A stretch of DNA of 64,000 bases from an uncultured Clostridia bacterium (lineage in GTDB: Bacteria; Bacillota; Clostridia; TANB77; CAG-508): NCBI GenBank assembly GCA_947585105.1, contig CANPWV010000003.1:221-64220 (forward strand), in the 5' to 3' direction. The stretch's first letter is position 1. Each line of letters opens with the position of its first letter. This document shows, piece after piece, positions 63,592-63,937 of the stretch. A model generated the notes under the pieces. It ran no database searches. It had not been told where the DNA came from and worked only from the letters and a program-made list of their open reading frames with translations. The translations under genes were made by a program, and so were the position numbers.

Positions 63592-63620
63592 TTGACAAAT
63601 GTTGAGATTGTGTATATAAT
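63592..63620 (+). promoter_or_regulatory. consensus sigma-A promoter of a short plus-strand RNA
   Basis: TTGACA (63592-63597), 17-nt spacer, TATAAT (63615-63620). Confidence 0.55.
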
Positions 63621-63626
63621 AATTAT

Positions 63627-63713
63627 AGGAAATGAACATACAGAAATGTGTGTTGCCACAATAAATTGTGAAAAAACACTACATCGCCTGTCAAAGCAAA
63701 ATGTAGTGTTTTT
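63627..63713 (+). ncRNA. candidate ~85-nt antisense/antitoxin RNA
   Basis: runs from the predicted start just after the consensus promoter to the terminator hairpin. No convincing ORF. Its 3' end overlaps the convergent toxin-like transcript. Confidence 0.35.
63675..63710. terminator. bidirectional terminator shared by the convergent transcripts
   Basis: 10-bp stem AACACTACAT / ATGTAGTGTT, A-run upstream and T-run downstream. Confidence 0.55.
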
Positions 63714-63715
63714 AT

Positions 63716-63814
63716 TTATTCCTTAAATTTCTTACAGACTATGTAAGTCAATAAGGCTATGTTCAAAGTTGCTGAAATCATTAAGCTATATATTAAAAAT
63801 AATACAATACTCAT
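63716..63814 (-). CDS. candidate type I toxin: 32-aa hydrophobic peptide with basic tail
   Basis: MSIVLFLIYSLMISATLNIALLTYIVCKKFKE; AGGTGG RBS 6 nt upstream of the ATG; the stop abuts the terminator. Confidence 0.45.
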   Translation of the reverse strand: MSIVLFLIYSLMISATLNIALLTYIVCKKFKE

Positions 63815-63908
63815 AGAACACCACCTCACTTTCTCATAGCAAATCACTATGTACAGTAAAAGTGGCAACACACGACATCTGCTTTTTCATTCATTTCCTA
63901 TGAAAACT

Positions 63909-63937
63909 ACTATATATCATTTTCATATCTCTTGCAA
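63909..63937 (-). promoter_or_regulatory. sigma-A-type promoter of the toxin-like transcript
   Basis: TTGCAA (63932-63937), 17-nt spacer, TATAGT (rc of 63909-63914). Confidence 0.45.

Follow-up and report, generated by a model that had tools for sequence, protein, structure and literature searches.

The convergent cassette

The stretch of DNA considered here, referred to as the window, comprises 64,000 nt of contig CANPWV010000003.1 from an uncultured Clostridia bacterium. The region 63592-63937 contains a cassette of two convergent genes. On the minus strand, a short open reading frame (ORF) encodes a hydrophobic peptide, termed the toxin by analogy with known systems, and on the plus strand it is faced by the predicted gene of a small RNA. 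Both transcripts would end at one bidirectional terminator. The original prediction had read this arrangement as a candidate type I toxin-antitoxin pair, and that reading of the layout was upheld. The locus probably belongs to a family of type I toxin-antitoxin-like cassettes, approximately 330-350 bp in length, that had not been described before and is widespread in uncultured low-GC Clostridia of the gut.

The toxin promoter (63909-63937, minus strand) consists of a -35 box TTGCAA (63937-63932), a 17-nt spacer and a -10 box TATAGT (63914-63909), with a consensus match of 9/12. The mRNA is predicted to be approximately 234 nt in length (63668-63901, minus strand), from the A of AUAGG at 63901 to just beyond the terminator, its ends being placed by analogy with RNA contigs of homologues. 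The 5′-terminal motif AUAGGAAAUGA (63891-63901) is conserved in the family and predicted to be single-stranded. The leader, of approximately 87 nt rather than the 85 nt of the earlier estimate, contains an anti-Shine-Dalgarno (anti-SD) element CCACUUUUAC (63856-63865), an inner hairpin CAUAG-loop-CUAUG (63835-63851) and the Shine-Dalgarno (SD) region GUGAGGUGG (63821-63829), for which the predicted unpaired probability is approximately 0. The ORF itself, MSIVLFLIYSLMISATLNIALLTYIVCKKFKE, occupies 63716-63814 with its ATG at 63814 and the stop codon at 63716-63718, and encodes 32 amino acids (aa). Both the ORF and its upstream ribosome-binding site (RBS) had been claimed and are present.

The shared terminator (63672-63713, both strands) is a perfect 13-nt inverted repeat, AAAAACACTACAT/ATGTAGTGTTTTT, at 63672-63684 and 63701-63713, enclosing a 16-nt loop. 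It abuts the toxin stop codon as had been proposed and is flanked by T runs on either side, with a stem of 13 bp, not 10. The two RNAs are fully complementary here. The structure was overlooked by a simple terminator scan because the loop limit of that scan is 8 nt.

The small-RNA promoter, TTGACA-17-TATAAT (63592-63620, plus strand), matches the consensus at all 12 of 12 positions, and from the hexamers it is predicted to be much stronger than the toxin promoter; the hexamers of the family agree. Both promoters lie where they had been placed. The predicted small RNA (63627-63716, plus strand) is approximately 90 nt in length, slightly more than the 85 nt first suggested. Its parts are a 5′ tail (A)UAGGAAAUGA, hairpin 1 (AACAUACA-GAAA-UGUGUGUU, 63635-63654), a GCCAC directly 3′ of this hairpin (63655-63659), a small hairpin specific to the window (63657-63670) and the terminator. 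The 3′ overlap of the two RNAs is approximately 45-55 nt, longer than the 40 nt of the earlier estimate.

The mirrored 5′ leaders of the original prediction resolve into two perfect 12-nt inverted blocks. The first, ATAGGAAATGAA, is found at 63625-63636 and 63890-63901, and the second, GTGTGTTGCCAC, at 63648-63659 and 63862-63873. Two copies of GTGTGTTGCCAC in the window compare with an expectation of 0.02, and two copies occurred in 0/100 shuffles. The two arms can be aligned from the -35 box through CCAC, with 48 identical positions, and a covariance model of the toxin leader (R2) also hits the small RNA of the window at 30.9 bits. Judged from these alignments, the small-RNA gene is paralogous, in inverted orientation, to the promoter and leader of the toxin, and the mirrored 5′ ends would follow from this origin.

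The cassette family and its expression

The 32-aa peptide gave no significant match to Pfam (E up to 1-10), NCBIfam, PHROGs or PADLOC, and an exhaustive profile-free search of 1.84 billion representative proteins gave 0 hits at E<=1e-3. The entry point to the family was a 51-aa extended form of the ORF, which found one relative (P0001) among 5.8 billion proteins. The contig encoding P0001 (L003) carries two tandem cassettes with the same anatomy as in the window. P0001 itself (L003 2226-2399) is a gene-calling artefact: the called frame opens at the AUG of the leader and continues across a TGA, in the style of genetic code 4 or 25, into the toxin ORF. It is the sole database protein resembling the window peptide. 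A conserved upstream ORF at the leader AUG was considered and rejected, as such frames are 2-15 codons long and their sequence is not conserved.

The 17-mer GAAAGTGAGGTGGTGTT, common to three leaders, was used to scan genomes, one for each species. At least 119 stretches contain it, almost all of them in metagenome-assembled genomes (MAGs) of uncultured gut Clostridia whose hosts are human, rabbit, mouse, ruminant and chicken. In metagenomes, a scan built on the small-RNA promoter together with the 5′ motif gave at least 120 further stretches, adding subfamilies with other RBSs and other hydrophobic peptides, for example MVKVILFFIISLMLSLTLNVALTAVLYKNWVDKQLHK and METLLIHLIYLLFFGLIGVTIIAVALIITLVIILSK. 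Most of the examined stretches from both scans (at least approximately 240 in all) share the cassette layout of the window. A search with a degenerate DNA pattern for the peptide-coding region gave random matches only, in viral contigs. The window DNA itself is present in rabbit gut metagenomes. It holds one cassette copy, and a covariance model of the small RNA (R1) hits it once (40 bits, E 4.6e-06).

Insertion sites are very diverse, and some loci hold cassettes in tandem. The neighbouring genes are varied housekeeping genes, with no conserved partner across the cassette loci. No match to the annotated phage and plasmid collections was obtained by blastn. Two IMG/VR contigs from one sample (L123, at approximately 1800-2150, and L125) place a cassette in a siphovirus-like phage or prophage, between two N-acetylmuramoyl-L-alanine amidase (endolysin) genes with tail genes adjacent. 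An upstream insulating terminator was rejected as a part of the cassette, being found in 11/96 copies versus 12/96 in the reverse orientation.

The ORF, of 30-40 aa, is intact in 100/108 family copies with complete flanks, and the peptide consensus is MxFILFLIxxLMxSxTINVALLTIIYI..NKE. Entropy is lowest at codon position 2 (0.16-0.32, versus 0.48-0.59 at positions 1 and 3), and synonymous differences are common among the copies. This codon pattern is the one expected of a hydrophobic helix under selection, and at the sequence level it indicates that coding constraint acts on the peptide and that the gene is genuine. The window peptide has a grand average of hydropathy of 1.38 and is modelled by AlphaFold as a single helix over residues 2-31, with a mean predicted local distance difference test score (pLDDT) of 94.5. 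One invariant Asn and a near-invariant Ser/Thr lie at mid-helix. The PXXXG motif is absent; the window peptide contains no proline, and proline is not frequent at any core column of the alignment. Two copies (L028 and L052) have internally deleted ORFs, and the small-RNA gene is intact in both.

Nucleotide-level conservation was also observed within the coding region. The Ala codon in N-V-A-L-L is GCC in 94/94 copies, and AAC-GUA-GCC-UUA is nearly fixed despite the AT-rich genome (N-I-A-L in the window, 63735-63750). In an RNAalifold consensus of the full mRNA, GCCUUAUU is paired with the RBS. This model suggests that GCCUUAUU may be a second anti-SD element, internal to the ORF.

The convergent small-RNA unit is present in 99/100 cassettes, and R1 finds it at every locus tested. 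Of 81 unique cassettes, 80 have TATAAT as the -10 box of this unit, 63 have TTGACA and 16 have TTGACT as its -35 box, and 76 have a 17-nt spacer. The toxin promoters of the family have a -10 box of TATAGT, TATACT or TATATT and a poor -35 box, TTGTTT or TTGATT. The fold of the window small RNA has a z-score of -4.2. Compensatory changes affect 7/7 pairs of hairpin 1 and 14/14 modelled pairs of the terminator, in which 95.9% of alignment cells are paired. For the two structures together, all 21/21 pairs are compensatory, 94.5% of cells are paired versus 27-54% in slid controls, and the covariation score is 0.407 versus at most 0.085. The arm pairs of the hairpin can be read directly: AACCGCA/UGCGGUU, AACCAUA/UAUGGUU, AACAUAC/GUAUGUU, AACCACA/UGUGGUU and AGCCACA/UGUGGCU. 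RNAalifold recovered the terminator only, because MAFFT had misaligned hairpin 1; the covariance models resolved the alignment. The RNA has no significant family match in Rfam. At the comparative level the small-RNA gene is genuine, with its expression predicted.

The accessible 5′ motif, AUAG(G/A)AAAUGA, varies in parallel in the two arms of a cassette. The variants include AUAAGAAAUGA (L003), GUAAGAAAUG (L038), AACAAGAA (L122), AGGAAACAA (L039) and AGGAAGU (L019). Cognate pairs of motifs differ at a mean of 1.47 positions versus 1.94 for permuted pairs, and 0/5000 permutations were as low. No complementary partner of the motif was found.

The existence of the toxin mRNA in vivo is supported for two homologues. 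No RNA run with the window sequence was found; the homologue L070 is present in mouse gut metatranscriptomes. In runs X21, X24, X26 and X27, its contigs cover only the span from 7183, 7196, 7198 or 7202 to 7414, 7417, 7427 or 7430. This corresponds to the predicted start site (7427-7431; at the A of AUAGG, which lies 7-8 nt downstream of TATAGT) at one end and to a point 6-12 nt beyond the terminator stem at the other. The depth is 44.6 in one contig and zero in the flanks, and in one contig an Illumina adapter directly abuts position 7196. The second homologue, L119, has the same restricted coverage. Reads unique to the small RNA were also sought in RNA data, and all that was recovered was a paralogue fragment containing promoter DNA. 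As a separate point, the RNA-contig 3′ ends at L070 7196-7202 lie just past the stem, without a U tract on the toxin side, which raises the question of termination versus processing.

Pairing within and between the two RNAs

In both the minimum free energy (MFE) and centroid folds of the window leader, CCACUUUUAC pairs with GUGAGGUGG, and the RNAalifold consensus of 84 leaders contains the same anti-SD:SD helix. The leader element and start region of the family interact at a mean of -13.6 kcal/mol (z -2.6 versus shuffles). With model R2, divergent metagenome subfamilies included, the anti-SD:SD helix and inner hairpin have 92.5% of cells paired versus 40-55% in slid controls, and a covariation score of 0.505 versus at most 0.10. 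In the inner hairpin, compensatory changes affect 6/6 pairs, and pairing holds in 95% of cells. The RBS and anti-SD types also switch jointly: GGUGG occurs with (G/A)CCAC(U/C), GGAGGUGA with UUACCUC(U/C), and UGGAGGUGG with UUACCUUU. The sequestration of the RBS in cis by the CCAC of the leader, as first proposed, is thus supported by the individual folds, the consensus fold and the covariation among subfamilies.

The companion proposal, that the UGCCAC of the small RNA pairs with the toxin RBS in trans, fared poorly. In the window, the UUGCCAC region binds the translation start region at -7.7 kcal/mol (z -0.9), a value equalled by 20% of shuffles, and CCACAA is base-paired in a hairpin within the small RNA's own ensemble. 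Across the family, the linker that follows hairpin 1 reaches a mean of -7.4 kcal/mol against the start region (z -0.8), with 36% of linkers below z -1. Whole subfamilies carry GCCGA, GCCUGA or GCCAA in the linker and have no advantage over shuffles. Only the UUACCACUU subfamilies have a convincing linker match, of 8-9 nt to AGGUGGUG, at -10 to -13.7 kcal/mol (z -2 to -3.5). The best ungapped 5′ complementarity in the family is 5-9 nt and variable in position. Co-folding of the two RNAs, which the original prediction had suggested as a check, yields a gain of only -2 to -9 kcal/mol with heterogeneous contacts and no consistent trans site. RNAduplex applied to long sequences gave meaningless long-range duplexes, and a best-window scan without accessibility gave several different CCAC sites. 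It is doubtful that the anti-SD-like motif of the small RNA acts in trans as well.

The sole certain complementarity lies in the 3′ overlap. As the convergent RNAs share a terminator, they are perfectly complementary over approximately 45-55 nt of their 3′ ends. This region contains the terminator, with its unusually large, conserved loop of 16-20 nt, and a tail over the stop codon. By analogy with known systems, the contact of the small RNA with the mRNA is likely to be this 3′ overlap with its complementary terminator loops. A YUNR U-turn in the terminator loop occurs in some subfamilies and is missing from the commonest, and it is not claimed here.

A further complementarity was recorded. 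The 5′ arm of the terminator, AACACUAC (63672-63684), is complementary to the start region GUGGUGUU (63815-63829), at -10.2 kcal/mol (z -2.3), and the match extends to 11 nt in L012, L084 and L101. From the sequences, the terminator arm seems to track changes of the start region in some subfamilies.

Placement among type I systems and rival explanations

The cassette is best filed as a new family within the type I toxin-antitoxin systems, with toxicity and repression ascribed by analogy. In the proposed mechanism, the weak promoter would produce an mRNA of approximately 235 nt for a 32-aa membrane peptide with a single helix. On the evidence of folding and covariation, CCACUUUUAC pairs with the RBS GUGAGGUGG and a hairpin closes over it, which would leave the mRNA translationally silent in cis. 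The near-consensus promoter of the opposite strand would yield the structured small RNA of approximately 90 nt, ending at the same terminator. The 3′ overlap of the two RNAs would then take in the toxin stop codon and the pair of large complementary loops formed by the terminator. Loop-loop contact followed by duplex formation is suggested by analogy with par and with the 3′-overlapping systems of Bacillus. The duplex might be cut or destabilised, or the mRNA might be held in its closed form.

The closest likeness is to par (Fst/RNA I-RNA II) of Enterococcus faecalis plasmid pAD1 and to par-like loci. Convergent promoters, a shared bidirectional terminator and a 5′ stem-loop sequestering the toxin RBS are common to par and the cassette, and the par toxin is of similar size, at approximately 33 aa, with one transmembrane helix (PMC7472228). 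In par, the complementary terminator stem-loops can start RNA-RNA contact (PMC7472228). The 5′ complementarity of par, however, derives from the direct repeats DRa and DRb, whereas the 5′ regions of the window form an inverted repeat, so that the two RNAs carry the same and not complementary 5′ sequence. In the window, the toxin start region and the small-RNA gene have no direct repeat in common. Fst-type toxins are marked by PXXXG and a conserved Trp; the window and family peptides lack PXXXG and have no hit to the Pfam Fst models. Since both the DRa/DRb-type repeats and PXXXG fail, the cassette may work in the manner of par without being a member of it. The likeness to Fst and TxpA that had been proposed holds for organisation; it does not extend to the PXXXG motif or to a match with a toxin family.

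Similar to the cassette, the SprA1/SprA1AS and SprA2/SprA2AS pairs of Staphylococcus aureus combine a membrane peptide of approximately 30 aa with a cis antisense RNA and a short 3′ overlap (PMC8167048). In those systems the non-overlapping 5′ domain of the antitoxin blocks the RBS in trans (PMC8167048), whereas the window and many subfamilies show weak pairing of this kind or none. The sequences are not similar. The TxpA/RatA, BsrG/SR4 and BsrE/SR5 systems of Bacillus subtilis are likewise convergent Gram-positive genes with complementary 3′ ends; RNase III degrades their duplex, and the loci frequently lie in prophages (PMC8167048; PMC6563280). Their overlap is much longer and reaches past the terminator, whereas that of the window covers approximately the terminator hairpin only, and their toxins (approximately 38-60 aa) are unrelated.

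The only experimentally characterised type I systems in Clostridia are those of Clostridioides difficile, including CD2517.1-RCd8 and CD0956.2-RCd10 (PMC6563280). These share convergent overlapping genes and small peptides with an N-terminal transmembrane segment, and some are located in prophages (PMC6563280). They differ in toxin length (34-59 aa), Lys-rich tails, SigB promoters and an association with CRISPR arrays. No similarity to their toxins was found through the NCBIfam and Pfam models, which were the sole basis of comparison. The AapA/IsoA system of Helicobacter pylori and hok/Sok also have an inert toxin mRNA fold, in which the RBS is sequestered by anti-SD elements of the leader or ORF. 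Their antitoxins, in contrast, overlap the 5′ region of the mRNA, and activation there requires 3′ processing.

Several points weigh against the assignment to the type I systems. As the covariance-model alignments were fitted to the structure under test, the percentages of paired cells are inflated. The covariation of the anti-SD:SD helix rests on the smaller metagenome set because the genome scan had fixed the RBS sequence. Efficient pairing is an assumption, given that the 3′ overlap is shorter than those of TxpA/RatA or BsrG/SR4 and that two stable hairpins lock it. The metatranscriptome contigs are unstranded, and some DNA may be included. In the four cleanest runs no coverage falls on L070 7166-7195, the segment unique to the small RNA; size selection or low expression may be the cause. 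Toxicity of the peptide is drawn from other systems only. The conserved 5′ motif and several nucleotide-level constraints are not accounted for.

If the small RNA repressed mainly in trans through UGCCAC and the RBS, in the manner of the 5′ domain of SprA1AS, the 3′ overlap would be incidental. SprA1/SprA2 provide a precedent for 3′-overlapping pairs that work through their 5′ ends (PMC8167048), and most small RNAs carry (A/G)CCAC after hairpin 1. The linker is UUACCU in three subfamilies whose leader anti-SD is UUACCU, and the duplex with AGGUGGUG in the UUACCACUU subfamilies is consistent with this mode. It is nevertheless unlikely in view of the near-random pairing energies of the window and the family, the internally paired CCACAA, the subfamilies that do no better than shuffles and the inconsistent co-folding contacts. 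The presence of a CCAC-like motif in the small RNA counts for less, as it follows from paralogy with the leader. It is rather improbable that the locus is instead a peptide gene with an antisense regulatory RNA and not an addiction module, serving a physiological role in stress, the membrane or the timing of lysis and non-toxic at native levels. Such a role would fit the abundance of the mRNA in gut metatranscriptomes (depth 44.6), the ordinary housekeeping flanks and the one copy in a prophage lysis region between two endolysin genes. An abundant yet silent toxin mRNA is, however, normal in type I systems (PMC7472228). A strong RBS locked by a covarying helix, together with a far stronger antisense promoter, is a hallmark of type I toxins. 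The small RNA is also retained in copies with a deleted ORF, and the copies are scattered, some tandem and some phage-borne, as in known type I systems.

It is very improbable that the inverted repeats are simply the terminal repeats of a miniature mobile element, with the promoters, ORF and hairpins incidental. At its two ends the unit does carry arms that are imperfect inverted repeats of each other, insertion sites are diverse, and a few copies lie between direct repeats (15-40 nt) in which the ends of host genes are contained. The coding constraint, three covarying helices, near-invariant promoter hexamers and bounded RNA contigs argue instead for expressed genes. The flanking repeats stand apart from the inverted arms and are found in only 4 of approximately 100 copies, and mobility and toxin-antitoxin function can in any case coexist. 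A more elaborate proposal, held only tentatively and on the whole doubtful, is that the antitoxin RNA arose as an inverted duplication of the toxin promoter and leader and acts as a diffusible copy of the cis silencer. The shared accessible 5′ motif AUAGGAAAUGA and the anti-SD module would then be kept because the two RNAs compete for a common partner or are handled by it, this partner being either the toxin start region after leader processing or a protein or RNase. The cassette of approximately 340 bp would itself be mobile, inserting between host stop codons and terminators with target duplications of variable length.

As a type I system, the family would contribute a large group without sequence relationship to the others, carried on the chromosomes, and in one prophage or more, of many abundant uncultured gut Clostridia from human, rodent, rabbit, ruminant and bird. 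It is overlooked by both gene callers and RNA family libraries, and models R1 and R2 can be used to annotate such loci in gut MAGs. With three covarying helices, many natural variants and matched subfamilies, it offers a compact and fairly well-constrained model. It is suited to asking how a short 3′ overlap and a cis anti-SD lock control a membrane peptide, and how an antitoxin RNA evolves from the toxin's own leader.

The flanking repeat of the window cassette is the 22-nt ACAATCTCAACATTTGTCAAAT, with one copy at 63588-63609 and a partner approximately 490 nt off, past the window end. The outer copy was located on contig L001, which extends beyond the window, at 1245-1266 (approximately 64080-64101), after the stop codon of a 412-aa GLUG-motif gene. 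Other direct repeats flank the cassettes of L006 (40 nt, at the 3′ end of a Spo0A-like gene), L080 (19 nt) and L033 (15 nt). This pattern suggests insertion with target duplication of variable length.

The window neighbours of the cassette are a LexA-like repressor with HTH_3 and Peptidase_S24 domains (61718-62293, plus strand), a 155-aa CBM53 carbohydrate-binding protein (62313-62780, plus strand) and a FabG-type short-chain dehydrogenase (62802-63521, minus strand). Three giant minus-strand ORFs lie elsewhere in the window, at 8678-16159 (2493 aa), 33758-43312 (3184 aa) and 43305-48650 (1781 aa). The 17-nt ribosome-binding stretch also occurs in L041 and L114 (an ‘uncultured Bacillales’ MAG), where it lies ahead of an unrelated hydrophobic ORF of 25 aa, MTHREEHLYVIILLLLLLIFYILSK, with a hairpin after it. 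This ORF may represent another family of small toxins.

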